Below are positions 1 through 11,391 of a stretch of 60,107 nt of DNA, piece by piece; within the stretch, counting starts at the first letter, position 1, and every line of letters starts with the position of its first letter. The notes under the pieces were generated by a model. The model saw nothing but the letters and a program-made list of their open reading frames with translations, made no database searches and was not told the origin of the DNA. The DNA comes from Samistivirus egole. Its lineage: Duplodnaviria > Heunggongvirae > Uroviricota > Caudoviricetes. Location of the stretch: the IMG/VR virus record IMGVR_UViG_2974779775_000001, positions 1 through 60,107 of that record; one strand, written 5' to 3'. A program made the position numbers and the translations under genes.

Positions 1-211
1 GTGGGGTATGTTCCGGGCGGGAACAAAAGGCATCTACCCTGCATATTAAGGCTAGCAGACACATGGGCCCACGAATCCAAGGCAAGTAGGGCTGTCAAGC
101 ACCGATAATTAGGCCCCAAAAGTGTCCCAAAGTGAGCAGAAACACGCTGATTTCAAGGGAAATGCTGCCATTTTGCCCGAAATCATGCCAAAAATCCCCA
201 ATTTTAACAGT

Positions 212-675
212 CATTCGTAAAGCAGCCCCAATCTAGCCCACATGCAGCCCCGAATCAGCCCATCTTCCTGGAAAATTAGGCAGTCATCGTAAATGGACCC
301 ACCATTCGAAGGCCAATGAGTCTGACAGACCTTAGATTCATAGATGAGGTGTCGATTCTCCCTATATACATGCCAGACTTGAGTCTGATGTGAGAAAAGC
401 CCGGCAATTTGAAGAAGCTTTCGTAAACGAACTAGATAGATACACACGCATTATAGGGAAGGGTAGGTAGTATATGTATATAGGGGACAAGGGTACTCAT
501 CACTACCGGCCTTGAATCTCAGCATGTCTTGTCTCTCATGTATATAGCAGAAAAGCCACCCCGAAGGGTGGCTATTTTTGTAAACTCAAATCCTTGCGAA
601 ATTGTGGAATCTTCCGGGATTCTGAGGCCCATTCGTAAAGGGAATCTCTGGGAAATTTGAGGCCCCATCGTAAAG
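212..675 (+). repeat. Five copies of TCGTAAA (mostly CA(T)TCGTAAAG) in the non-coding left end
   Basis: TCGTAAA at 215, 287, 421, 633 and 668. The last two sit in ~20-bp direct repeats GAGGCCC(A/C)(T/A)TCGTAAAGGG. Confidence 0.75.
554..573 (-). terminator. Intrinsic terminator, UUCG loop
   Basis: On the minus strand AGCCACCC-TTCG-GGGTGGCT followed by TTTCT; a T-run also follows on the plus strand. Confidence 0.7.
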
Positions 676-889
676 GGGAAAAAGTCGGACATAGGGGACA
701 AATGACTGATGATGTTCATAGTCATGATGTTAGTTAGACTAGCTAAGGTGTCCGGGTCCGACATTGAAAGGTCCCTGGGAGGCGGCCGACCTTCCGCTCA
801 TTACCCCTCGCCGAATGACTGATAGGGGTCCCAGGGACACACTTTGTACTACTCTTCTATGTTAGCAAGAGCGTGAGCCTATGTCAACA

Positions 890-1123
890 TCACTTGGTGT
901 AGTCAGGGAACAGGCGTTCCAACTCCCAGTCTTCCAAGAGATAGGCAGAGTGAGTGGGGGAGGGTACAGAGATACTGACAGCCCTGCCAAACTTCTTTGC
1001 CTGTTCGTTCCAGACCTTACCGATGAAAGAGTTGGGAGTGATTCCCTCCACCTTGAAGTAGAAGCTTCCCGAGAGAACCAGGTCACCCATGGACAGTTCG
1101 ATGCTTTCCTTTACCGGCTTCAT
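890..1123 (-). CDS. Hypothetical protein (start 1123 leaderless, or 1090)
   Basis: ORF with its own promoter; ATG at 1123 lies 6 nt from the -10. Confidence 0.7.
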   Translation of the reverse strand: MKPVKESIELSMGDLVLSGSFYFKVEGITPNSFIGKVWNEQAKKFGRAVSISVPSPTHSAYLLEDWELERLFPDYTK

Positions 1124-1129
1124 GTGTTG

Positions 1130-1158
1130 AGTCTACCAGTACAAGAGGGCTCTGTCTA
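1130..1158 (-). promoter_or_regulatory. Early sigma70/HrdB-type promoter
   Basis: TAGACA-N17-TAGACT. Confidence 0.8.
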
Positions 1159-1202
1159 CCCACCGGCCAATTTGTCGGACCCCGACCCCGAAGGGCCGAG
1201 CA

Positions 1203-1502
1203 TCAGAAGTCGGGTTCGTCCATCAGGCTGCTGAACTCCTCTTCCATTTCAGCAATGGCCTCAGCCATCCAGAGGGCTCGTTCCTTCCTGCGAATTTCAC
1301 GACGGTGCCAGCGTCCGTTGTCCAGCTCATCCATGTAGCGGTGGGCAAGGATACGGCTGTTACCCATGACTCCACTGTTACGAGTCACGTGACCACTCCA
1401 CCTCTTACGGTGAAGCCCGGAACGGGGAATCGGGATACCCTTGGCACTGTTAGCGTACTCCGTGGCGCGAACCACACTGTACCAGTCACCGACAGAACGC
1501 AT
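1203..1502 (-). CDS. Hypothetical protein
   Basis: 99-aa ORF, GGGAGG RBS, own promoter, stop followed by hairpin. Confidence 0.8.
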   Translation of the reverse strand: MRSVGDWYSVVRATEYANSAKGIPIPRSGLHRKRWSGHVTRNSGVMGNSRILAHRYMDELDNGRWHRREIRRKERALWMAEAIAEMEEEFSSLMDEPDF

Positions 1503-1528
1503 ATACTTCCTCCCTTTTGCTTAGCTTG

Positions 1529-1557
1529 AGTCTACCAGAGTACAAGGACACTGTCTA
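1529..1557 (-). promoter_or_regulatory. Early promoter
   Basis: TAGACA-N17-TAGACT. Confidence 0.8.
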
Positions 1558-1634
1558 GCTACCGGGCGTTTGTCCGGCCCCGCCAAAAATCCCCTAAACC
1601 CTTTCGGGCTAGGGGACTGGCGAACATTCCTGGA

Positions 1635-2648
1635 TTAGCTGGCCAGGGCCAGGACCGCCTTACGGATGCGGTTCTTCTCGACGTTGACGACCGGGTCAAA
1701 GCCACTTGCGGCGATGAACAGGTTATCGACGTTGCCACCACGCGGCATCCGGTACCAGTCGATACGCTCCGTCAGAGCGTTCAGAGCACCCGCCATCGTG
1801 CCAGACAGAGACTGCGTGGTCTTGGGACCGTCACCCGTGTCGGTGAAGATGCCCATGAGGATGTCACGCTTCGACTCCCACTTGACCATGCTGCCCTTGA
1901 CATCCTTTTCGGGCTTGGGGTACAGGTCCTGAATCAGAGCATCGAACTTGTCCTTCGTGCACTGCACCTCGAACAGAGAGTTCATCTCACGCTCGAACTC
2001 ATCCGCGTAGGCGAACGTGATGTTCAGAGCCTCACGCGCAGCAGCCATGCGACCCTCGATGGTCTGCGTGTGGCGCATCTTGAACTGTTGCTTCACACCG
2101 TTACGGAGTGCAAAGTTCAGCGTGTTCTGACACACGACACGAACCGGGGTAATGCTTGCCTGAACTGCGACAGACCCGTCATGCGACGTGTTGACCAGAA
2201 GATACAGCTTGGTCACGTCATCGTCACCGACCTTGATGTCACGCCCGATGCTCAGCGAACCGAACACCACACGACCATCCTTGATAGAACCGGCAGTCTC
2301 CCAGGTTCCACCACCCGCAAGGATGCCGTCACCGAAGCCGAACAGCTCTTCGTTCTGGACGACCTTGTACCGCTCGCCCACCGTGGCCAGAACGTCATTC
2401 CGGCCGGTGAAGGGGTTGGTACGGACGACCATGTGAGGCTCCGTCACGAAGTCATAGGTGTCGGACACCAGACCCATGATTTCCTTGATGGACTCCAGAC
2501 GCACATCCCAGCCCGAAAGGTGGGCGAGAGACAGCATCTCCGAAGTGGTCAGCTCCCCCTCGAATACGGTTCCGAGGTTGTGCCACGCGGGCTCACTGCG
2601 AGTGGCGAACGCGACCTGACCCTTGGAACCAATCTCAAGACCGTGCAT
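1635..2648 (-). CDS. DUF932 family (phage/plasmid TIGR03299-like) protein
   Basis: AWHNLG...Y.VVQN.E.F...WETAGSIKDGRVVF...NTSHDGS...TPVRVVCQNTL motifs. AGGAGG RBS supports the start at 2648. Confidence 0.85.
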   Translation of the reverse strand: MHGLEIGSKGQVAFATRSEPAWHNLGTVFEGELTTSEMLSLAHLSGWDVRLESIKEIMGLVSDTYDFVTEPHMVVRTNPFTGRNDVLATVGERYKVVQNEELFGFGDGILAGGGTWETAGSIKDGRVVFGSLSIGRDIKVGDDDVTKLYLLVNTSHDGSVAVQASITPVRVVCQNTLNFALRNGVKQQFKMRHTQTIEGRMAAAREALNITFAYADEFEREMNSLFEVQCTKDKFDALIQDLYPKPEKDVKGSMVKWESKRDILMGIFTDTGDGPKTTQSLSGTMAGALNALTERIDWYRMPRGGNVDNLFIAASGFDPVVNVEKNRIRKAVLALAS

Positions 2649-2706
2649 GTTGTGCCTCCTAGGCAGATTGGTGTTAGGGCCGGTTTCCCTGCCCTTCGAT
2701 GTCTCT

Positions 2707-2736
2707 AGTCTAGCAGTAGGCAAGGGGTGATGTCTA
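2707..2736 (-). promoter_or_regulatory. Early promoter
   Basis: TAGACA-N18-TAGACT-N6-ATCGAAGGG. Confidence 0.8.
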
Positions 2737-2840
2737 CCCATGCTGCCGGGCTCATGTCCACAATGTCCGATTTGCCCGTTGCCGGACCCGGACACACGAA
2801 GGCCCCTCCGAAGAGGGGCTGTGTGCGAGCCTTAGCAGAC

Positions 2841-3281
2841 TCAGTACGCGGCGTCCAGGCAGGAACGCTCCCAGTTGGCCAGGTACATGCCGTCCAGCTT
2901 GGACACATAGGCGTCCACGATGTCCTTCGAGTCCTTGAGACCCAGACCGGTCTTCTCACGGAGCTGCTTGATGCACTGAATCTTCTTGTTGGAACCGACC
3001 TCACGGACGATGTCCTTGACCAGCTCCGCACCCTGCGCCTTGACGCGCGCCTCGATGTCACGGAGACGGTTCAGCTCGTGGCTGGTGGGCTGCTCGGCGT
3101 CCTGCTTACCGGAACGGTAGCCAGCCTGGTAGCCCTCGGCGTAGGACTTGTCCTCACGGTTCTGGAGTTCCCCGGCGTAGATGGCCTCGAACATGTTGAC
3201 CAGCTCCATGGCCTTGTTGAGGCTCATGTGACCCTCGAAGTTGTGGAGGGAGGCGAGGAGCTGAGCGCGAAGGTCCGACAT
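2841..3281 (-). CDS. Protein with C-terminal ribosomal L7/L12 (bL12) CTD-like domain
   Basis: KKIQCIKQLREKTGLGLKDSKDIVD resembles the bL12 CTD KI.VIK.VR..TGLGLKEAK.LVE. Confidence 0.75.
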   Translation of the reverse strand: MSDLRAQLLASLHNFEGHMSLNKAMELVNMFEAIYAGELQNREDKSYAEGYQAGYRSGKQDAEQPTSHELNRLRDIEARVKAQGAELVKDIVREVGSNKKIQCIKQLREKTGLGLKDSKDIVDAYVSKLDGMYLANWERSCLDAAY

Positions 3282-3326
3282 GATGTTCTCCGTTTCTAGG
3301 GGCTCCTTGCCCCTTTCGATGTCTCT

Positions 3327-3356
3327 ATCTTAGCAGTACCAAGGGCCCTGTGTCTA
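3327..3356 (-). promoter_or_regulatory. Early promoter
   Basis: TAGACA-N18-TAAGAT-N6-ATCGAAAGGG. Confidence 0.8.
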
Positions 3357-3403
3357 CCGGTCGTTTTTGTCCGGGCCCGACAGGGCCCCGAAGGGCCCTT
3401 CTG

Positions 3404-3844
3404 TCAGAACCTCACACCGACACCGGAACCGTCCAGCGATTCCACGATGCTCTTTGCGGTACGCAGGTCCAGCGTCGGGAAGTGGGCGCGAAGGTGCTTG
3501 ATGCACGCAATCTTGCGCTCCAGGTTGTAGTAGCTGAATTCACTGTTCGCCCAGATGGACGCACGCGCGACCAACTTGGTGTGGTCGTTCTCAGCGGCAT
3601 AGGTGGTCAGACGCTCCCCGTGCGCCTTACCCTGTCCGTAGCCGTCGTTGAAGGCGGACTCCACACGCCCGTTCGCCTCCTTACGGGCCAGGTCCCAGGC
3701 GTTGTTCTCCACCTCGTTGACCCGCTCCAGGTGGGCACCGTAGATGAGGTTGGCCACCGTGAACGCCTTCTTCAAGCTCATCTTGACACCGTTGGCGTTG
3801 AAGATACGCATGATGCGGGCCTCGTCCAGGGTGAAGATGCTCAT
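3404..3844 (-). CDS. Paralog of 2841-3281; divergent bL12 CTD-like domain
   Basis: Same length (146 aa). Shares MSL.KA, EG/DGY..GK and RKIACIKHLRAHFPTLDLRTAKSIVESLDG. Confidence 0.7.
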   Translation of the reverse strand: MSIFTLDEARIMRIFNANGVKMSLKKAFTVANLIYGAHLERVNEVENNAWDLARKEANGRVESAFNDGYGQGKAHGERLTTYAAENDHTKLVARASIWANSEFSYYNLERKIACIKHLRAHFPTLDLRTAKSIVESLDGSGVGVRF

Positions 3845-3889
3845 GGTAGCCTCCAGTCTCAGGGAGCTTGTCTCCCTTTCGATGTCTTT

Positions 3890-3918
3890 AGTCTACAGGA
3901 CTAGTGAGGCAGATACAA
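3890..3918 (-). promoter_or_regulatory. Early promoter
   Basis: TTGTAT-N17-TAGACT-N6-ATCGAAAGGG. Confidence 0.75.
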
Positions 3919-3976
3919 CCCCTCTTCAAAGTGTCCGGGCCCGACACGGGCCCCGAAAGTCAAGGGCCCGGTAGGG

Positions 3977-4312
3977 TCAAGGGTTGGTGTGTCCCCTTTT
4001 CAGTAGTATCTGTTCGATGATGAATTTCGAATCCATCACGCGATTGAATTCATCATCTGAGCGGCTTTCCGTCCTGCCTGCCCATGCATTGAGAATGGAG
4101 ATGATGAACTGAAACATCACCGCCTGCACAGGCTCAGGATAGGTCGAAAGCAGATAGGCGAATGCATGAGGGTCGAATGACCGCTTATCCATTTCGTCAA
4201 TCAGCTTATTGGCCAGACGCTCATACGACGTAGGCCGTGGCGTTACGAGTCGCGCACCCTCATACATGTCAGGTGCGATGATGCTTGTTCGTTTGAAGGG
4301 ACTACGCGCCAC
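3977..4312 (-). CDS. Hypothetical protein (start GTG 4312 or ATG 4267)
   Basis: C-terminal part of the 225-aa ORF. The upstream part of that ORF overlaps two other genes. Confidence 0.65.
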   Translation of the reverse strand: MARSPFKRTSIIAPDMYEGARLVTPRPTSYERLANKLIDEMDKRSFDPHAFAYLLSTYPEPVQAVMFQFIISILNAWAGRTESRSDDEFNRVMDSKFIIEQILLKRGHTNP

Positions 4313-4466
4313 CCTCTCCCCCAAAGTCTTCCGTTGTACCGTATCCGTCTGAGACGCTGACAGACAGGCCCAGCACCTTTGCCATGAACTCTGCCGTAGC
4401 AGTAGCAAAGGGCCAGGCCGTGTCGTGAGCGTCATCATCGGGCGTGTCGATTTCGATGATGACCAT
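4302..4466 (-). CDS. Small acidic hypothetical protein (54 aa, MVIIEIDTPDDDAHD...)
   Basis: Translated by hand; AGGA RBS; fills the gap between the Lsr2-like gene and the next gene. Confidence 0.65.
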   Translation of the reverse strand: MVIIEIDTPDDDAHDTAWPFATATAEFMAKVLGLSVSVSDGYGTTEDFGGEGGA

Positions 4467-4475
4467 GACTCTATC

Positions 4476-4994
4476 CTATCGTGCGTGAACCTCGACGTCC
4501 ATACCGAGCACCACCGGGGAGCCACAGCCGCAGTGCGACAGGCTGTAACCGCACTTGCACACCTCACGCTCCGAGAGACGGATGCGCTTGCCACGGTAGT
4601 AAGCCGTGTACTCGGTACGGTTCGAACGGGTGGGCTCGGCGTGCGGACGGACATCCTTACCGGTCACCTTGACGTGCACACCGGGCGCAGCGGGCTTGAC
4701 CTCCGGGTTGTCTGCCTTGTAAGCGGCCAGCACCTCAGCCGACAGACGACCACGGGACGACACGGTGAGACCCTTGGAAGCGGCCCACGCACGCACCACC
4801 TTGGCATCGAACTGCCCGGCCTTGGGAGCGGCCTTGACGACCTTGCGAGGCGTGGCGTCGGTGTCAGCGAAGACCTTACCCGACTTCTCAGCCTCAGCGA
4901 TGGCCTCGTATGCGGCAGCGCTCATCCGGCCACGGGATTCCTTGGCCAGGCCCAGAGAGACAGCGTACGCGCGACGGGTCATGTTGACGTTCAT
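4476..4994 (-). CDS. Lsr2-like DNA-binding protein with two RGR AT-hook-type modules
   Basis: VRAWAASKGLTVSSRGRLSAEVLAAY matches the Lsr2 C-terminal domain. The N-terminal RRAYAVSLGLAKESRGRMSAAAYEA is a second, similar module. Confidence 0.8.
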   Translation of the reverse strand: MNVNMTRRAYAVSLGLAKESRGRMSAAAYEAIAEAEKSGKVFADTDATPRKVVKAAPKAGQFDAKVVRAWAASKGLTVSSRGRLSAEVLAAYKADNPEVKPAAPGVHVKVTGKDVRPHAEPTRSNRTEYTAYYRGKRIRLSEREVCKCGYSLSHCGCGSPVVLGMDVEVHAR

Positions 4995-5021
4995 GGGGTT
5001 TCCTTCCCTCGGTGTGCACTC

Positions 5022-5050
5022 AGTCTATCGGATTGAAGGCGGAGAGGCAA
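5022..5050 (-). promoter_or_regulatory. Early promoter
   Basis: TTGCCT-N17-TAGACT. Confidence 0.7.
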
Positions 5051-5091
5051 GCCCCGGTGCAGAGGTTGGTTTCCCTCCCCTTCATGTCTCT

Positions 5092-5121
5092 AGTATAGAG
5101 GACGTAACAGGGTCCTGTCTA
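5092..5121 (-). promoter_or_regulatory. Early promoter in tandem with 5022-5050 (no full gene between)
   Basis: TAGACA-N18-TATACT-N6-ATGAAGGGGAGGGAAACC. Confidence 0.75.
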
Positions 5122-5183
5122 CAGTCCTAAATGTCCGATTTGCCCGAAGTCCGGGCCCGACATGCCCCCGAAGGGGCAAGGGG

Positions 5184-5918
5184 CTAAGCCTTTCGGCGCT
5201 TAGAGACCTTGGACGCGAAACGGATATCTGCCTTACCGAAGATGCAAAGGCCACACGTTACGCACGCGCCACCCTTTTCGGTAATGAGAGGAATGCGCTT
5301 GGCATTCTCAGGGCAGATAGCCCCAGGCTTACCAGTTTCGGTAAGCATGAATTCCTTACCCTGTTCGTGAGTCTCAGAGAGATAGGCAAGGCGGACCGAA
5401 GGGAATTCCTTCTTTGTCGCCAGCGCCTTTTCCTCATTCTCACTGTCCACACTCAGATAAACAGAGAGGTTTTCGTGCCCTACGATGTGACGCACGTACT
5501 GGAATGACCTAGTGTAAATCCAGAATTGCACATCCTGGAAAACCTCAGCCATTCGAGCGATATTCTGTGCGTATTCCGCAGAGAAGATATCGCCGTCAGC
5601 GTGCCAGCGAAACAGCTTAGGCGCGTCACGCTTTTCACAGTCAGCCCTGAAACTCTCAATCATTACTGCGAGATTGAGAAACTGGTCCTCGTTAGGGTCA
5701 TTGAGAATGGCCCAGTTGTTGAGAACCAATTCACGATATGCAGGATACTGCCTTTCGAGCTTACCTGCATAGCATACGGTCTCACAGACCTTTGTCGCGC
5801 CGGGGCAGGAAAACGCCTTTCCACTCGGAATGGAGAATGCGTTTTTGATGACCGACTGTTCCCCTCGCTTGTTGGCAAGGTTGGCAGTCTTACGGTCATT
5901 CGTGCGCTTAAGCGGCAT
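5184..5918 (-). CDS. GP88-like / radical-SAM-like Fe-S protein
   Basis: SCPGATKVCETVCYA Cys cluster, FRWHADGD, WIYTRS and C-terminal C..C..C. GGAGG RBS at the 5918 start. Confidence 0.65.
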   Translation of the reverse strand: MPLKRTNDRKTANLANKRGEQSVIKNAFSIPSGKAFSCPGATKVCETVCYAGKLERQYPAYRELVLNNWAILNDPNEDQFLNLAVMIESFRADCEKRDAPKLFRWHADGDIFSAEYAQNIARMAEVFQDVQFWIYTRSFQYVRHIVGHENLSVYLSVDSENEEKALATKKEFPSVRLAYLSETHEQGKEFMLTETGKPGAICPENAKRIPLITEKGGACVTCGLCIFGKADIRFASKVSKRRKA

Positions 5919-6213
5919 TGCGTTCCTCCGAGCTGTAGGGCAATTCAGTGTTACGGACAATGGTACCGAGCGAAACAGCGTTGATTGTCTTGTGTCCAAG
6001 AATCCACGCCATTACGACACGGTGCTGACCATTGTAGACCGTGCCATTCTGAAAGTTGATAGGCATCTGAATTCCGTCACGCTCGCATGACTCAATGAAT
6101 TCATCGCTCATCTCAAAGAAAAGCTGAGTGAAAAGGTCCATCGTGGACTGACCTTCCTCGCGGTCTGCGAAGTCGGCACGGGCAACGATGGCTTCAACGC
6201 TCAGCTTCCTCAT
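5908..6213 (-). CDS. ParB/Sulfiredoxin-like domain protein (leaderless start)
   Basis: F.ESC..DGI..PI....VYNGQHRV motif; TATACT -10 lies 7 nt upstream of the ATG. Confidence 0.65.
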   Translation of the reverse strand: MRKLSVEAIVARADFADREEGQSTMDLFTQLFFEMSDEFIESCERDGIQMPINFQNGTVYNGQHRVVMAWILGHKTINAVSLGTIVRNTELPYSSEERNAA

Positions 6214-6220
6214 GTGTTCG

Positions 6221-6249
6221 AGTATAGCAAGACATGCGGACGTAAACAA
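6221..6249 (-). promoter_or_regulatory. Early promoter, leaderless transcript
   Basis: TTGTTT-N17-TATACT. Confidence 0.6.
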
Positions 6250-6378
6250 GCCCCTAGACGAATGTCTGAAATGTCCGTTGTCCGCCCCGGACATGACTGA
6301 GGGCCCCCGAAGGGGCCCGGTGTCAGAGAAAGATGATTGCGAGAAAGAACACAATCACCACGTACCAGAGAAAGGCGG

Positions 6379-6456
6379 TCAGACATTCTCGCAAACCTCC
6401 CGGTACCAAGAGTAGTGCGTGTACAGGTAGAAGTGAAGCCACTCAACGAAGTGCAT
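6379..6456 (-). CDS. 25-aa aromatic-rich peptide MHFVEWLHFYLYTHYSWYREVCENV
   Basis: AGGAG RBS 5 nt upstream; starts 2 nt after the stop of 6459-6782. Confidence 0.5.
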   Translation of the reverse strand: MHFVEWLHFYLYTHYSWYREVCENV

Positions 6457-6458
6457 GT

Positions 6459-6782
6459 TTACTCCTGACAGAGAGGCAGGCCCAAGTCGTCCTGCATGTC
6501 CAGAAAGTCCGAGTTGAAGATTTCAAGGTACGTGCCACCCTTGATTTCTTCGATACCGAGCATGTATGCCACGATGAGCCTGTGACATCCCTCGTGAATC
6601 ATGTTCTGCTCCTCATCATAGCAGATGGGAGAGACGATTCCAAGGGTCTGGCATGAGTCCATGAACTCATCCGACAGCTCAGACAGCTTGCGCAAGAGAA
6701 GTTGTTCACGAGTGAGACCAAGAGCCTCGGCGTCGTAGAACAGAGCGTTGTCGATGAGTGCCTTCACACTGTACATCTTCAT
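6459..6782 (-). CDS. ParB/Sulfiredoxin-like domain protein, paralog of 5908-6213
   Basis: SDEFMDSCQTLGIVSPI...IHEGCHRLIVAYMLG. Confidence 0.65.
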   Translation of the reverse strand: MKMYSVKALIDNALFYDAEALGLTREQLLLRKLSELSDEFMDSCQTLGIVSPICYDEEQNMIHEGCHRLIVAYMLGIEEIKGGTYLEIFNSDFLDMQDDLGLPLCQE

Positions 6783-6805
6783 TGCTTTCCCCTTTCGCTA
6801 GTACG

Positions 6806-6835
6806 AGTCTACTGCACTACCGGGCCCCATGTCAA
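6806..6835 (-). promoter_or_regulatory. Early promoter
   Basis: TTGACA-N18-TAGACT. Confidence 0.85.
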
Positions 6836-6908
6836 CACATCTGAAAAATGTCCGGGGCCGCCAAAAGGGGCCCCGAAGGGCCCCCAAGGGGTCAAGCCGT
6901 TGTTGTGA

Positions 6909-7181
6909 TTAGTCCTCGCTGGTGTCCTTCTGGCTCACCAGCTTCGCACGACCGAGCAGAGAGGCGTCAGCCTCCTTCCACTTACGGACCGGGCGACCGG
7001 TGCGCACGCGGGGGAAGCGGGCCAGGATGGCACGGGCGCGGGTCTCGTCGGCCTCCAGGATGTCGAACCGCTGGAAGGGAGCGACGTTGGACGTGGCACC
7101 GAACTCGATGTCCACCCCCTGGACAATCATGGCCACACGGAGGGCGAGAGCGTCACGGGCGGGAACGATACCGGCAATCAT
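6909..7181 (-). CDS. Hypothetical protein
   Basis: 90-aa ORF, GGAG RBS, GC3-rich codons, followed by a hairpin and a palindrome. Confidence 0.75.
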   Translation of the reverse strand: MIAGIVPARDALALRVAMIVQGVDIEFGATSNVAPFQRFDILEADETRARAILARFPRVRTGRPVRKWKEADASLLGRAKLVSQKDTSED

Positions 7182-7294
7182 GTGAACTCCACTGCTAGAA
7201 GTAAGCTGGGGTATGAAGTTGTCAGAGACTTTGGCAGGAAGGGAAAAACCTCACGTTGCGAGGCCCTGTGGCCTGTCCCCTTGTGCTTAGCTAG

Positions 7295-7324
7295 AGTCTA
7301 GCAGGCTGACCTACTCGCAGTCAA
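7295..7324 (-). promoter_or_regulatory. Early promoter (-35 inside the 3' end of the upstream gene)
   Basis: TTGACT-N18-TAGACT. Confidence 0.75.
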
Positions 7325-7493
7325 CCAGGTACTCGGGCTCGTCGTCCTCGGAGACGGTCCAGATGTCCGCCAGCCATCCGCTACGGATGACGCCAGCCGA
7401 CACGAACTTGTGCGGCTCAGCAGCCTCACGGACAGCGTCCGCGTGCTCCTCTTCGGAGATGATGCTGTAGCCCTCGGGAATCTCGAACGTCAT
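7311..7493 (-). CDS. Small acidic hypothetical protein
   Basis: 60 aa, GAGGAG RBS, own promoter. Confidence 0.8.
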   Translation of the reverse strand: MTFEIPEGYSIISEEEHADAVREAAEPHKFVSAGVIRSGWLADIWTVSEDDEPEYLVDCE

Positions 7494-7538
7494 GATTGCT
7501 CCTCTCTTGGGGAGGTTTCCCTCCCTTTCGATGTTCTA

Positions 7539-7567
7539 AGTCTACATGAGAGATGGGGCGGACGCAA
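7539..7567 (-). promoter_or_regulatory. Early promoter
   Basis: TTGCGT-N17-TAGACT-N6-ATCGAAAGGG. Confidence 0.75.
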
Positions 7568-7626
7568 CACCCAATATTCGTTAGGCTGCCTAAGTTGTCC
7601 GGGTCCGACCCCGAAGGGCCAGACTG

Positions 7627-7785
7627 TTAATCTCCCATGTCATCCAAGTGAGCATCGGGAGCGGGCTCGAACTCAAGGAAGGTGTCTTCGAAAAGCACCA
7701 TCCATGCGTAGCCCTCACGGTTGTCAGGATTGCACTTACCACGGTGCATGTCACCCGTGGCAGCACCACACTCAATGCAGGTCAC
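7627..7785 (-). CDS. Small Cys/His protein (52 aa, MTCIECGAATGDMHRGKC...)
   Basis: GTG start overlaps the upstream TGA; AAGGAGG RBS; not in the supplied ORF track. Confidence 0.7.
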   Translation of the reverse strand: MTCIECGAATGDMHRGKCNPDNREGYAWMVLFEDTFLEFEPAPDAHLDDMGD

Positions 7786-8000
7786 TCGGCCTCCTTGATG
7801 TCCATGGCAACCAGCATGTCAACCCTGCTGACAGTGAGGGCAATCTCTCGCCCGTCCTTGTCAGTGAAGTTGAAGGTACTTGCCTTGGCAGCGACCGCCT
7901 TGCGCCACGACTCGTTCGTCTCCTCCGCACTGTGCGAAGTCAGAGTGAACAGAACCGGCTTGTCACGGTGGGCCAGGTGAACAGCAACGCGAGTAGCCAT
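7782..8000 (-). CDS. Hypothetical protein
   Basis: 72 aa, GAGAGGA RBS, own promoter. Confidence 0.8.
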   Translation of the reverse strand: MATRVAVHLAHRDKPVLFTLTSHSAEETNESWRKAVAAKASTFNFTDKDGREIALTVSRVDMLVAMDIKEAE

Positions 8001-8045
8001 GATGCATCCTCTCTTCCGGGAGTTTTTCTCCCTTTCGATGCTCTA

Positions 8046-8074
8046 ACTCTACACCATCAGACAGACAGAATCAA
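8046..8074 (-). promoter_or_regulatory. Early promoter
   Basis: TTGATT-N17-TAGAGT-N6-ATCGAAAGGG. Confidence 0.75.
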
Positions 8075-8121
8075 GACTGTCGGGCCCCGACACGGGCCCC
8101 GAAGGGCCCGGCGGGAAGGTG

Positions 8122-8406
8122 TTACTTCTTGGCCTTGGCGCGCTTGTTGCTGTGGTTGCCGTTCATGAGGGCCGTGAAGTCCAGCATGATGTTCTGCTTG
8201 AAGTTGGTCGCTCCGTGGAACTTGCCGTCCTGGTCACGGATGACGATGCGGACCTCGGTGGAGTCGCTGCCCGGAGTGGTCTTCCAGGTCTCCAGACGGA
8301 TGCTGTAGGTGCTCTTGGAGCCCTTGACCTTGAAGCCCTCGGAGATGGTGACGCTGGAGACGATGTTGTGGTTGACGTCGGTCGCCTTGCGAAGGGTAAC
8401 AGCCAC
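8122..8406 (-). CDS. Basic hypothetical protein
   Basis: 94 aa, GTG start with AGGAG RBS. Confidence 0.8.
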   Translation of the reverse strand: MAVTLRKATDVNHNIVSSVTISEGFKVKGSKSTYSIRLETWKTTPGSDSTEVRIVIRDQDGKFHGATNFKQNIMLDFTALMNGNHSNKRAKAKK

Positions 8407-8458
8407 GGTGACTCCTAAGTCTCTGCTAGGGGTTTCTTTCCCCCTTGCTGATAGCTAA

Positions 8459-8487
8459 AGTCTACACGACTCAGCCGACAAGTACAA
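8459..8487 (-). promoter_or_regulatory. Early promoter
   Basis: TTGTAC-N17-TAGACT. Confidence 0.75.
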
Positions 8488-8548
8488 CCCATGAAATTAT
8501 GTCCGAAATGTCTGTCGGAGCCGGACAGGGGCCCGAAGGCCCCTCCCG

Positions 8549-8875
8549 TCAGTCTGCCAGGATGGCGGCCAGACGCTCACGCTGCGCACGGTCATGCGCA
8601 CCGGAACGGCTCGCGTACTCCTGGAACTCGGAGACGGTTTCGACGGAGAAGTGTCCGTTTTCGTCCAGCTTGGCCACACGAACGGTGTAGCGTCGGGCGT
8701 AGTCGTCGTTCCGCTCCGAAGAGACGAAGAACATGGACTGTCCGTCGATGGTGCTGTAGCACATGTCCGAAATGCGCGACTTCCACCACCGCATGGTAGA
8801 AGCGGAGAAGAAGTGGTTGCCCTGGTCCTTGGCGATGGCCTTGGCGTCCTCGATGCTGAACAGAACCTTACGCAT
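8549..8875 (-). CDS. Hypothetical phage protein (GNHFFS..TMRWW.SR family)
   Basis: 108 aa from MRKVLF; GAGGA RBS; own promoter. Confidence 0.8.
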   Translation of the reverse strand: MRKVLFSIEDAKAIAKDQGNHFFSASTMRWWKSRISDMCYSTIDGQSMFFVSSERNDDYARRYTVRVAKLDENGHFSVETVSEFQEYASRSGAHDRAQRERLAAILAD

Positions 8876-8904
8876 TTGGGGTTCCTCTCCCTCGGTGTAA
8901 GACG

Positions 8905-8933
8905 AGTCTATCAGAGACAAGGGACATGCACAA
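8905..8933 (-). promoter_or_regulatory. Early promoter
   Basis: TTGTGC-N17-TAGACT. Confidence 0.7.
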
Positions 8934-8990
8934 CACCTACCGGGCCTTTTTGAAAATGTCCGACCCCGACAGGGCCCGAAGGCCCCTCTG

Positions 8991-9305
8991 TCAGGATTCG
9001 ATGGACTTCTGACGCTCACGCGGGAGCGCAGCCACCTCCGTGATGATTTCGGTCAGACGCTCCTCATCGACCCACCCCTCAACGGAGTCATCCAACACGC
9101 CATTGTCGTCAGGCATGTTGCCCTCGGGGTCGAAGATTCCGCATTCGACTCCGTAGGTTCCGTACGCCTTGACGACCGACAGACGCCATCCGTTCTCGTA
9201 GTTGACGTAGAAGTGGATGCCCGTTCCGTTCTCACCGTGACGCGGACCGAAAGTGACCTTTGCACCCGGAGCAACGTCACGCGCGATGTTGGCAAGCTCA
9301 CTCAT
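8991..9305 (-). CDS. Hypothetical phage protein
   Basis: 104 aa from MSELAN; own promoter, followed by a hairpin. Confidence 0.8.
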   Translation of the reverse strand: MSELANIARDVAPGAKVTFGPRHGENGTGIHFYVNYENGWRLSVVKAYGTYGVECGIFDPEGNMPDDNGVLDDSVEGWVDEERLTEIITEVAALPRERQKSIES

Positions 9306-9336
9306 GGTCTTTCCCTTCGTCGTTTTCGTTAGCACT

Positions 9337-9365
9337 AGTCTAGCAGTCGGATTTTTGAGTCGCAA
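9337..9365 (-). promoter_or_regulatory. Early promoter
   Basis: TTGCGA-N17-TAGACT. Confidence 0.7.
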
Positions 9366-9446
9366 CCCCTCAGACCGATTTTTTAGTCTGTGGGCAAAAT
9401 GTCTGTTTTTTTAGTCGGGGGCGGACGCCCCGAAGGGCTAGCCGCC

Positions 9447-9758
9447 TTACTCCCAGGGCCGGTAGTCAGACCAGTCGGAACCCTCGTGATTCTGAATTTC
9501 GACGGTCACCGTGTCACCCAAACGGTGATTCACGCTGTACAGGGAACGGCTGGAGCCCTGGTAACGCCTCTGGGCCTTTGCCCACTTGACCAGCTTCTCA
9601 GCCTGCTTACGGGAACGGCAGGGCCATGCCTCGATGCACTCTCCGTAGTTGTACCACCATCCGCCCTCTTCCGAGCCACCACAGGCCCGGTCCACCAGAT
9701 GAATGTTCACCCAGTGCTTGTTCCGACGACGCTGACCCATACGCAGACCCTTGGCCAT
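9447..9758 (-). CDS. Hypothetical phage protein (R.CGG.EEGGWWY motif)
   Basis: 103 aa, AAGGAGG RBS. Confidence 0.8.
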   Translation of the reverse strand: MAKGLRMGQRRRNKHWVNIHLVDRACGGSEEGGWWYNYGECIEAWPCRSRKQAEKLVKWAKAQRRYQGSSRSLYSVNHRLGDTVTVEIQNHEGSDWSDYRPWE

Positions 9759-9782
9759 TTCCGCCTCCTTGTTGATGACCTA

Positions 9783-9811
9783 AGTCTAACAGAAGCCTAG
9801 GACAGATTCAA
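9783..9811 (-). promoter_or_regulatory. Early promoter
   Basis: TTGAAT-N17-TAGACT. Confidence 0.75.
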
Positions 9812-9866
9812 TATGCTTGCCAGGATGTACAGTGATTGTCGGACCCGGACAAAAAAATTCGCCTAC

Positions 9867-9927
9867 AAATTCACCCCTCTTTTCTAAGGGAATCTGGGAA
9901 GAAATCCTTGAAAAGAGGGGTGAATTT
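9867..9927. repeat. Perfect 18-bp inverted repeat with a 25-nt spacer in an AT-rich non-coding tract
   Basis: AAATTCACCCCTCTTTTC (9867-9884) / GAAAAGAGGGGTGAATTT (9910-9927). Confidence 0.85.
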
Positions 9928-10181
9928 TTTCTGCGAATGTTTTTCGAAGGTCAGATTGCGACTTTTTCGTCTTTTCCTGCCTCACAAAGGCAGTATTTCG
10001 AATGTGTCGCCTCGATTGCGACAAAGCCGCTTTCCTGATACCTCGAAAGAAGGTTGGCCAGAAGGGACGAGTTGAAAACCGGTGTTTTGGATTTCAGCCC
10101 GTCCCTTTCCAGCAAAAGGGACATACTGTGGAATCGAACCTGAGAAACAGCCTTTTTCCGCATTATGCCCCCCCCTACTGC

Positions 10182-10328
10182 CTAGGCCAGTTCGGACATG
10201 TGCGGGTAGGCGTCCCAGTCGAAGCCGTCCACACGGTCACCATCCTGCACATCGGACACAGGCACCGTGATGGTGGTGAAGACACCAGCGTCGCTGGCCT
10301 GCTCAAGAAGGGTACGGAGGTCAGTCAT
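10182..10328 (-). CDS. Small acidic hypothetical protein (48 aa, MTDLRTLLEQASDAG...)
   Basis: Translated by hand; purine-rich RBS and own promoter; not in the ORF track. Confidence 0.7.
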   Translation of the reverse strand: MTDLRTLLEQASDAGVFTTITVPVSDVQDGDRVDGFDWDAYPHMSELA

Positions 10329-10359
10329 GTTCTTCCTTCTTCCTCTTGGTGATAGCTCT

Positions 10360-10388
10360 AGTCTAGTCTACGTACATGGGGGATGCAA
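10360..10388 (-). promoter_or_regulatory. Early promoter
   Basis: TTGCAT-N17-TAGACT. Confidence 0.7.
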
Positions 10389-10448
10389 GCCCTAGATGTT
10401 CCGGGAATTTTCAGCGCCTATCGTACACGCGCGGGGGAAATGTGGGGT

Positions 10449-10575
10449 ATGTACTTAATGTACCTTAATAGGGCCTATGTACCATATGTCCGATATGTAC
10501 CATGCGTACCTGTATGTACCCATATAGCAGGATATATCCCCTATCCTCCCTATGTACCGAATGTCCGATATGCCC
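10449..10575 (+). repeat. Phased hexamer array ATGTAC/ATGTCC with ~9-10 bp periodicity
   Basis: Hexamers at 10449, 10458, 10477, 10486, 10495, (10504), 10514, 10552, 10561 and 10570. Confidence 0.75.
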
Positions 10576-10691
10576 GTTTGTCGGGGACGGACTGTTACAC
10601 ATCCGTTATCTAAGAAACCCTGTTTTGGTGGTTTGGCGGGCCCTGACTAGGGCATGATGTAGGCATAGCCACTACGGACCAGGGAGACACA

Positions 10692-11153
10692 GTGAACGCC
10701 ACCACCGCCACCCACACCAACACCCACACTGACGGCCGGACCTGCACCTACAGCACGGAAAAGGCCACAAACGCCCGTGTGCGTAGGCAGGTGCTCGCTA
10801 CGGTCCTGTACCTGGCTAGCCTTACGGGAGACAGTGACGGGGCCACATGGGCTAACTGTGTGGGGTGTGGGGAGCGTGCCCACGTGGGTGGTACGCCTAG
10901 GGCCATGGACACGTTCAACCTTGGCCACGTGCACAGTGATGCTGAGGGTGGCATGTGGTGCGTGTGCAACTTCCTTCCCCTGTGCAGGCAGTGCAACGTA
11001 GACATGGGCAAGGAACACATGATGGACCTTCTCACCCCGATGTATGACAATCGGGACATGTGGGACGGTAAGCTCCTCAAGGACACCGGGGCTGAGGTTG
11101 CACCCATGGACAACCGAGGACGTGCCCGCTGGAACGCCCCCACGGGCCGCTAA
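10692..11153 (+). CDS. HNH-family endonuclease-like protein
   Basis: CVGC...LGHV...NFLPLCRQCN zinc/HNH pattern; GGGAG RBS before the GTG. Confidence 0.7.
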   Translation: MNATTATHTNTHTDGRTCTYSTEKATNARVRRQVLATVLYLASLTGDSDGATWANCVGCGERAHVGGTPRAMDTFNLGHVHSDAEGGMWCVCNFLPLCRQCNVDMGKEHMMDLLTPMYDNRDMWDGKLLKDTGAEVAPMDNRGRARWNAPTGR

Positions 11154-11167
11154 GCGGCTTTGAGAGT

Positions 11168-11196
11168 AGCCCCTAGGACGTAGTGGCCTAGGGGCT
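11168..11196. terminator. Hairpin at the convergence of the early HNH gene and the leftward operon
   Basis: AGCCCCTAGG-N9-CCTAGGGGCT then CTTTC. Confidence 0.65.
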
Positions 11197-11391
11197 CTTT
11201 CATGCCCTCAGACGGGCCCTCAGCCCTTTTGAAAACGGCTTTCAACTAGGGTGGAACCTTCCCCGGAACCTTCCCGCAAGAGAATGTCAAGGGATATGGG
11301 CGCACTATCTGGATTGTTACAAAGGTATGCGAAGCATGTATCGTACAACATCAAAAATTACTAACATTTCGCACACCTTTTAATGTAACAA

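Follow-up and report, generated by a model that had tools for sequence, protein, structure and literature searches.

Two tandem genes of a Streptomyces phage carry half of a bL12 C-terminal domain on a predicted helical body

In the ribosomal protein bL12, the C-terminal domain (CTD) is the site at which factors bind and dock (PMC3299993, PMC4592705). Proteins with a bL12 domain are also encoded by phages, as the initial annotation of the DNA studied here had noted, and have been proposed to act as interfaces for translation factors (Mizuno 2019, PMC6375957). Closer to our subject is Riptide, a BE1 phage whose 2025 announcement (PMC12509530) lists two adjacent genes of the right-hand repeat, 258 and 259, as "ribosomal protein L7/L12, C-terminus domain". 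Here we consider a window of 60,107 nucleotides of Samistivirus egole (IMG/VR virus record IMGVR_UViG_2974779775_000001, positions 1 to 60,107), a cluster-BE (Samistivirus) phage of Streptomyces. The window contains two tandem genes, called paralog 1 and paralog 2 below, for proteins of 146 amino acids (aa) that end in a bL12-like motif.

The pair resembles the proteins of Mizuno 2019 (PMC6375957) in being virus-encoded and in matching the Pfam profile PF00542 (Ribosomal_L12, the CTD) in a non-ribosomal sequence context. Those proteins come from phages of Proteobacteria with genomes <80 kb and hold a bL12 "domain", sometimes inside large polypeptides; the present pair differs from them by its half domain, its Streptomyces host, a genome of 136 kb and duplicated early cassettes in a terminal repeat. 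The left-hand repeat of Riptide contains relatives of both paralogs which, together with the tandem position in the right-hand repeat, suggests that its genes 258 and 259 are the same two genes. The Riptide record is an annotation only, with no anatomy, no limit to helices alpha4-alpha5, no distribution and no comparison with cellular proteins. The automatic UniProt name of the Daubenski homolog is likewise L7/L12 C-terminus. Because of these three precedents the observation itself is not new; what is added here is the anatomy of a half domain on a helical body, the link with short modules of cellular proteins, the pattern of conservation and a natural series of presence and absence.

Both open reading frames (ORFs) lie where the initial annotation had placed them, on the minus strand. 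They and the modules that they encode are as follows:

2841..3281, minus strand: gene of paralog 1, from ORF and translation; 146 aa, canonical motif, homolog of Cross gp3
3404..3844, minus strand: gene of paralog 2, from ORF and translation; product of 146 aa with the diverged motif, homologous to Cross gp4
2889..2987, minus strand: encodes residues 99-131 of paralog 1, its short L12 module (alpha4, TGLGL turn, alpha5), from hhalign, AlphaFold and conservation
3431..3517, minus strand: encodes residues 110-138 of paralog 2, its diverged short L12 module, from PF00542, AlphaFold and alpha4 conservation

In phage Cross, gp3 and gp4 carry the annotation hypothetical. A protein 97% identical to paralog 1 is found in Samisti12, Peebs and Cross, and paralog 2 has 21 homolog clusters. 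The two proteins share 25% identity (BLASTP, E 2e-5) and both match phrog_5819 (E 2e-75 for paralog 1, E 5.8e-56 for paralog 2); by sequence comparison they are clearly homologous, as diverged relatives of each other. A promoter-like site is also present upstream of each gene. The description of the pair as tandem paralogs in separate early-type cassettes is borne out.

The likeness to bL12 lies in the C-terminal part of the proteins. Paralog 1 matches PF00542 with 34.4 bits (E 2.7e-8), above the gathering threshold of 25.9 bits, and the match spans only positions 5-37 of the 67 positions of the profile. The match of paralog 2 (14.3 bits, E 0.054, positions 11-38) is below the threshold when taken alone, and 22 of the 36 family members match the profile at E<=10. 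Among PDB sequences, it is bL12 chains that match best. With hhalign, residues 100-132 of paralog 1 are aligned onto residues 65-97 of E. coli bL12 over 33 columns (probability 95.2%, 44% identity), and the probability rises to 97.2-97.7% against 21 actinobacterial bL12 proteins; this second profile was built from genomes, as a search with E. coli bL12 gave only near-identical enterobacterial sequences. The stretch KKIQ(C/V)IK of the phage proteins is nearly identical to KKIQVIK of a Streptomyces-like bL12 sequence. The peptides quoted in the initial annotation (residues 99-122 of paralog 1 and 110-134 of paralog 2) were read as a bL12-like C-terminal motif, and this motif is indeed homologous to bL12 alpha4-alpha5 (hhalign probability 95-98%).

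The rest of the domain is missing. A complete bL12 CTD contains three helices and a three-stranded sheet in ~67 residues, and neither paralog has it: elements beta1, beta2, alphaC and beta3 are absent, and only ~20 residues follow alpha5. With the equivalog model TIGR00855, paralog 1 obtains 29.9 bits, below the cut-off of 84.4, and paralog 2 gives no match. Because the PF00542 match is partial and the predicted structures are all-helical and strand-free, the proteins do not contain the whole bL12 CTD. As judged from the alignments, the homology to bL12 is real but partial, being limited to ~33 residues that form helices alpha4-alpha5. The proposal that the proteins mimic the bL12 CTD, for which a comparison of folds was the suggested check, holds for the hairpin, which is homologous; it does not hold for the remainder, since half of the domain is present, both models are all-helical and the overall fold differs.

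The residues kept in this hairpin are of particular interest. Helgstrand in 2007 (cited in PMC3299993) and Diaconu in 2005 are said to have mapped the bL12 residues to which IF2, EF-Tu, EF-G and RF3 bind, and we take K65, V66, I69, K70, R73, K81, E82, K84 and D85 to be the factor-binding positions. All nine are conserved or conservatively replaced in paralog 1: in the hhalign alignment K100/I101/I104/K105/R108 correspond to bL12 K65/V66/I69/K70/R73, and L115/K116/D117/K119/D120 to L80/K81/E82/K84/D85. Paralog 2 keeps the alpha4 residues K/R, I, C, I, K and R of paralog 1, and its turn and alpha5 are changed (FPTLDLRTAK).

Conservation within the phage family is concentrated on the same module. 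Among 19 canonical homologs the mean pairwise identity is 83% in the module (residues 99-125), 36% in the N-terminus and 42% in the tail. Of the 27 module positions, 16 do not vary at all, among them the exposed residues K100, Q102, K105, R108, K119 and D120; the invariant surface positions read K, Q, K, R, T, K, D, K and D. A module so much better conserved than the N-terminus, with invariant surface residues, fits a conserved host partner. The paralog 2 version is itself stable: between phages its module is 63% identical and its N-terminus 64%. The suggestion that one paralog is diversifying can therefore be kept only in part: the motif of paralog 2 has diverged from bL12, but the paralog is stable among phages and the fast-evolving part is the canonical N-terminus.

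Two further observations concern single residues and ends of the proteins. A cysteine (Cys103 of paralog 1, 2975-2977; Cys114 of paralog 2, 3503-3505) replaces bL12 Val68 in alpha4, and is kept in 17 of the 19 canonical homologs and in all 16 diverged homologs. Several canonical-type homologs (P0015-P0018, P0020 and P0043) have the C-terminus GDEPPF or MDEPPF. In the window the C-terminal ends are LDAAY for paralog 1 and GVGVRF for paralog 2, with no DEPPF tail. We take the DEPPF tails to resemble the acidic C-terminal tip of actinobacterial SSB (DDEPPF), a recruiter of DNA-maintenance proteins, and in some homologs they may serve as an additional docking peptide that can be swapped. No SSB (PF00436) was found in the whole phage genome.

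The structure of the two proteins was predicted with AlphaFold from 35-36 homologs, giving confident models (pLDDT 81.8 and 86.5). Paralog 1 is predicted to form helices at residues 2-13, 21-62, 67-95, 100-111, 115-131 and 136-142, and paralog 2 at residues 8-17, 24-102, 111-121 and 127-138. Neither model contains a beta-strand, and single helices reach 42-79 residues. The hairpin alpha4-turn-alpha5 is kept in the models; an upstream helix is predicted in the place of bL12 strand beta1, and the sheet and helix alphaC of the bL12 domain are absent. Long helices, ~95 residues in all, come before the module. At its middle the long helix carries a conserved small-xxx-small repeat, (G/A)YxxGYxxGK, in which G54 and G58 are invariant. 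Residues 36-95 weakly match models of the FliH/SctL stator proteins (TIGR02499 and TIGR03825, E 3-4e-3, far below cut-offs), and one family member matches Yae1_N. Such families dimerise through glycine-repeat helices. The glycine repeat and the length of the single helices suggest that the proteins are probably dimeric helical stalks or rods. Fold searches (PDB with Foldseek, VIA-align on 48,161 chains, BFVD and ESM Atlas) yielded nothing beyond family members and generic matches to helical or coiled-coil proteins. The best VIA-align Z values (6.2-6.4) are in the noise range for helical proteins, and local matches were to the GlnRS N-domain and YqeY (Z 5.5-6.2). A two-helix match is unable to reach significance in such searches, so that the absence of bL12 from their lists is uninformative. 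An Atlas feature search with residues 1-95 gave no usable match.

Short modules of the same extent are widespread in cellular proteins. When 1.84 billion representatives were searched with a profile, 4096 of them matched at E<=1e-3. Of 144 new top matches, 24 are single-module proteins of the phage family (128-178 aa) and the other 120 contain 2-6 modules (three in most of them), spaced by a median of 66 residues. Some repeat whole C-terminal domains as defined by Pfam (P0044, P0047 and P0049), and others repeat short modules covering profile positions ~8-37 (P0050, P0055, P0059, P0074, P0180 and P0061), some of them behind an N-terminal membrane helix. When one genome per species was scanned with the canonical subfamily as query, 408 cellular relatives were obtained, all matching only residues ~85-125. 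The three top cellular matches were inspected and none is rplL. The first is a 105-aa protein of Mycolicibacterium iranicum (L020:2824-3138), which has a coiled coil in its N-terminal part and a single short module at the C-terminus (33.9 bits, positions 8-36); 20 of 26 module residues, counted by hand, are identical to paralog 1. A relative from an uncultured actinobacterium has the same coiled-coil-plus-module design, and one from Microbacterium has a membrane helix and two modules. Ordinary bL12 is also present in the Mycolicibacterium and Microbacterium genomes searched. Among 121 sampled genomes of Actinomycetes, bL12 was found in 114 and an extra short module in ~7; this tally takes in four unpublished genomes (G008, G033, G037 and G044), which gave only ordinary bL12 matches.

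By sequence features the phage proteins belong to this large, uncharacterised class of short L12 modules, a class which is a description from the present analysis and corresponds to no curated family: they match at positions ~8-37, have a helix before the module and end after alpha5. Cellular members, among them NCBIfam PRK06771, the DUF6793 C-terminus, P0050, P0059, P0074 and P0180, show the same module extent, scores of ~33 bits and a preceding helix. Unlike the phage pair they often have several modules or a membrane anchor, and they lack the glycine-repeat helix. The phage proteins may derive from actinobacterial short-module members rather than directly from rplL. These cellular proteins do not account for the phage pair.

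The class appears to be undescribed, is large and bacterial, and consists of proteins with 1-6 copies of the 33-residue alpha4-alpha5 module, the rest of the domain being absent (for example P0050, P0055, P0059, P0074, P0133, P0180, L016:2539-3126 and L020:2824-3138). Some members are anchored by a membrane helix at the N-terminus, their modules being predicted to lie in the cytoplasm. The automatic annotation of proteins of the class is "ribosomal protein L7/L12". A metagenomic protein of 232 aa (P0021) combines an N-terminal segment that by eye is TIGR02996-like with two complete bL12 CTDs, another non-ribosomal use of the domain.

The phage family is confined to Streptomyces BE-type phages. 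A paralog-1-type match is present in 75 records, and a true paralog-2-type gene (>=50% identity) in ~29 records, as estimated from identity bands; among the matches listed there are two places per record, consistent with a terminal repeat. Whole-record searches found both paralogs in Cross and only the canonical type, in the same slot, in NootNoot. Lululemon (PQ184791.1), 96% identical in DNA where it aligns, has lost precisely the canonical cassette and kept only paralog 2. Natural isolates thus exist without one or the other. On laboratory hosts neither of the genes is essential, and there may be partial redundancy between them. The loss in Lululemon corresponds to one cassette of promoter, gene and hairpin, ~620 bp when compared with 2841-3400 of the window. 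From this it would seem that whole cassettes come and go as units, perhaps when repeated intergenic elements recombine.

Because the module keeps the factor-binding residues, binding of translational GTPases is the best single hypothesis for its function; we propose it tentatively, its chances being somewhat short of even. Each paralog would be transcribed, presumably early, from its own host-type promoter inside the terminal repeat. The product would be an elongated all-helical protein, probably dimeric, made of an N-terminal helix pair, a long helix with a (G/A)xxxGxxxG repeat of the FliH/SctL kind and the C-terminal short L12 module. On the ribosome it is the alpha4-alpha5 hairpin that docks IF2, EF-Tu, EF-G and RF3; with the corresponding residues kept, the phage proteins could present a hairpin of this type and bind host translational GTPases away from the ribosomal stalk. 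Their role might be that of a decoy or an adaptor, as the initial annotation had envisaged, the adaptor acting through the N-terminal part, and translation would be biased early in infection. The investment of the genome in translation, with 44 tRNAs and a tmRNA, speaks for such a role. For a link to anti-defence, which had also been suggested, we found no evidence, a PADLOC run having given nothing meaningful. If GTPase binding is true, phage early proteins would for the first time have been shown to employ the ribosomal factor-recruitment surface as a separate tool; they would give a simple handle on the take-over of translation by large, tRNA-rich actinophages, and a function could be assigned to a very large, unstudied bacterial class of 33-residue modules. 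If the hairpin binds no GTPases, it is an ordinary, already-annotated domain match. A bolder and rather improbable form of the idea is that of a phage "alternative stalk", free or attached to the ribosome: a dimeric rod with two docking hairpins would capture EF-Tu ternary complexes or EF-G and, with the 44 tRNAs and the tmRNA, re-route elongation, in a host of 72% GC, to phage messages that are richer in AT, the paralogs being partly redundant and perhaps tuned to different factors.

Several points weigh against GTPase binding. The isolated bL12 CTD binds factors weakly, and the beta-sheet half of the domain is missing here. The short module is present in thousands of non-ribosomal proteins, and its conservation may reflect the folding of a tiny domain or some other common partner. 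Each paralog is dispensable in some natural isolates. The hairpin also shows weak likeness to the N-terminus of HU (Bac_DNA_binding, E 0.048) and to that of EF-Ts, so that a helix pair of this kind is not unique to bL12. In the second case the module is aligned onto residues 8-28 of the EF-Ts N-terminal domain, with 43% identity over 21 columns (hhalign probability 17.5%); the phage proteins differ from EF-Ts by lacking its core domain. An EF-Tu-binding motif common to EF-Ts and L7/L12 was reportedly proposed by Wieden in 2001.

These points leave room for other explanations. The short module could be a general helical interaction or folding unit of bL12 ancestry which has lost GTPase binding, with another host target and a role unrelated to translation. 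We regard this as unlikely, while giving it serious weight: most top profile matches carry their 2-6 tandem copies in membrane-anchored, LRV/HEAT repeat or DUF6793 contexts, and the closest cellular relatives are the small actinobacterial coiled-coil-plus-module proteins, not rplL, with uninformative neighbours (GGDEF, transposase). The weak HU and EF-Ts helix-pair likeness points the same way. However, the module is far nearer to bL12 than to anything else (E 2.7e-8 versus 0.048), its conserved residues are those conserved in bL12, and no alternative partner came from any search. Much further down we would place a role in nucleic-acid binding or in the take-over of chromosome or transcription, like the Lsr2-like and ParB-like neighbours, the helix pair being an HU-like or helix-hairpin element. 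The Bac_DNA_binding match and the DNA-related early neighbour genes suggest it, as do local Foldseek matches to the N-terminal helices of HU (31-33 residues at rmsd 1.2-1.3, E>6). These scores, however, fall short of significance and lie six orders of magnitude behind the bL12 match, and the matching HU helices are the dimerisation helices and not the DNA-binding arms; we consider such a role very improbable.

The N-terminus, which the initial annotation took not to be the bL12 dimerisation domain, raises the opposite question, whether more of bL12 is present than the hairpin. The proteins could be an extremely diverged whole bL12, in which the N-terminal domain is kept, the hinge has become a long helix and the CTD is cut to alpha4-alpha5; as a dimer on the uL10 C-terminal helix it would replace host bL12 and give phage-modified ribosomes. 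A colinear hhalign alignment with the actinobacterial bL12 profile places residues 1-36 onto bL12 1-33, with an M-S/T-L anchor and a hydrophobic pattern in common, and both models begin with a helix-loop-helix. This N-terminal signal is borderline: taken alone it has E 0.047-0.07, and in 300 column shuffles the real score was attained 13 times. The bL12 dimerisation domain PF16320 is matched by none of the 36 members with HMMER (E<=10), and the N-terminal profile has no match among PDB sequences (E<=10). The TIGR00855 score is far from its cut-off, and the canonical N-terminus evolves fast, which is unexpected for a uL10-binding surface. In favour of a whole bL12, a phage bL12-domain protein has been detected in E. 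coli ribosome fractions (Mizuno 2019, PMC6375957). On balance we think a whole bL12 improbable here.

The two genes are embedded in cassettes of the same order, as read on the minus strand: TGTCGGGCCCGGACA, a host-type promoter, a leader starting with ATCGAAAGGG and containing a hairpin, a Shine-Dalgarno sequence, the ORF and a GC hairpin with a UUCG loop. Their elements are:

3327..3356, minus strand: promoter-like site of paralog 1, TAGACA-18-TAAGAT with TG before the -10, from consensus scan and sequence reading
3890..3918, minus strand: promoter-like site of paralog 2, TTGTAT-17-TAGACT, from sequence reading
3282..3320, minus strand: 5' leader of paralog 1, with ATCGAAAGGG start, GGGGC/GCCCC hairpin and GGAG Shine-Dalgarno, from sequence reading
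3845..3883, minus strand: 5' leader of paralog 2, with ATCGAAAGGG start, GGGAG/CTCCC hairpin and GGAGG Shine-Dalgarno, from sequence reading
2802..2819, minus strand: terminator-like GC hairpin (UUCG loop, no U tract) that follows paralog 1, from sequence reading
3383..3398, minus strand: GC hairpin with UUCG loop after paralog 2, from repeat family D3 and sequence reading
3360-3374 and 3931-3945: palindrome TGTCGGGCCCGGACA, just upstream of both promoters

The promoter-like site of paralog 2 has a good -10 and a weak -35, and is absent from the consensus-scan list. Both leaders begin with the common ATCGAAAGGG, followed by a hairpin whose arms covary between the two. The palindrome TGTCGGGCCCGGACA is found repeatedly in the early region, its further copies lying across 749-10593.

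The phage genome is complete, with terminal repeats present. It is 135,653 bp long, with a GC content of 49.9%, 44 tRNAs and one tmRNA, and the window is its left 60 kb. The region is 97.6% identical to phage Cross and to other cluster-BE1 Samistivirus isolates. The direct terminal repeat is exact and measures 11,341 bp; both paralog genes lie inside it and are thus present in two copies per genome, unlike rplL, which is found beside rplJ. A search of the whole genome for uL24 (PF17136) gave no match; the sister phage Riptide is reported with a uL24 gene. The GC content is 60-61% in the two genes, 56.2% in the terminal repeat (window 1-11341) and 48.6% in the genome core. The high GC of the two genes fits translation by an unmodified high-GC host, which suggests early expression. 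More generally, early genes seem to be nearer to the host in composition than late genes. Neighbouring genes encode DUF932, Lsr2-like, GP88 and ParB-like proteins; the DUF932 gene (1638-2648, minus strand, E 1e-49) lies directly downstream of the pair and belongs to a family common on plasmids and phages.

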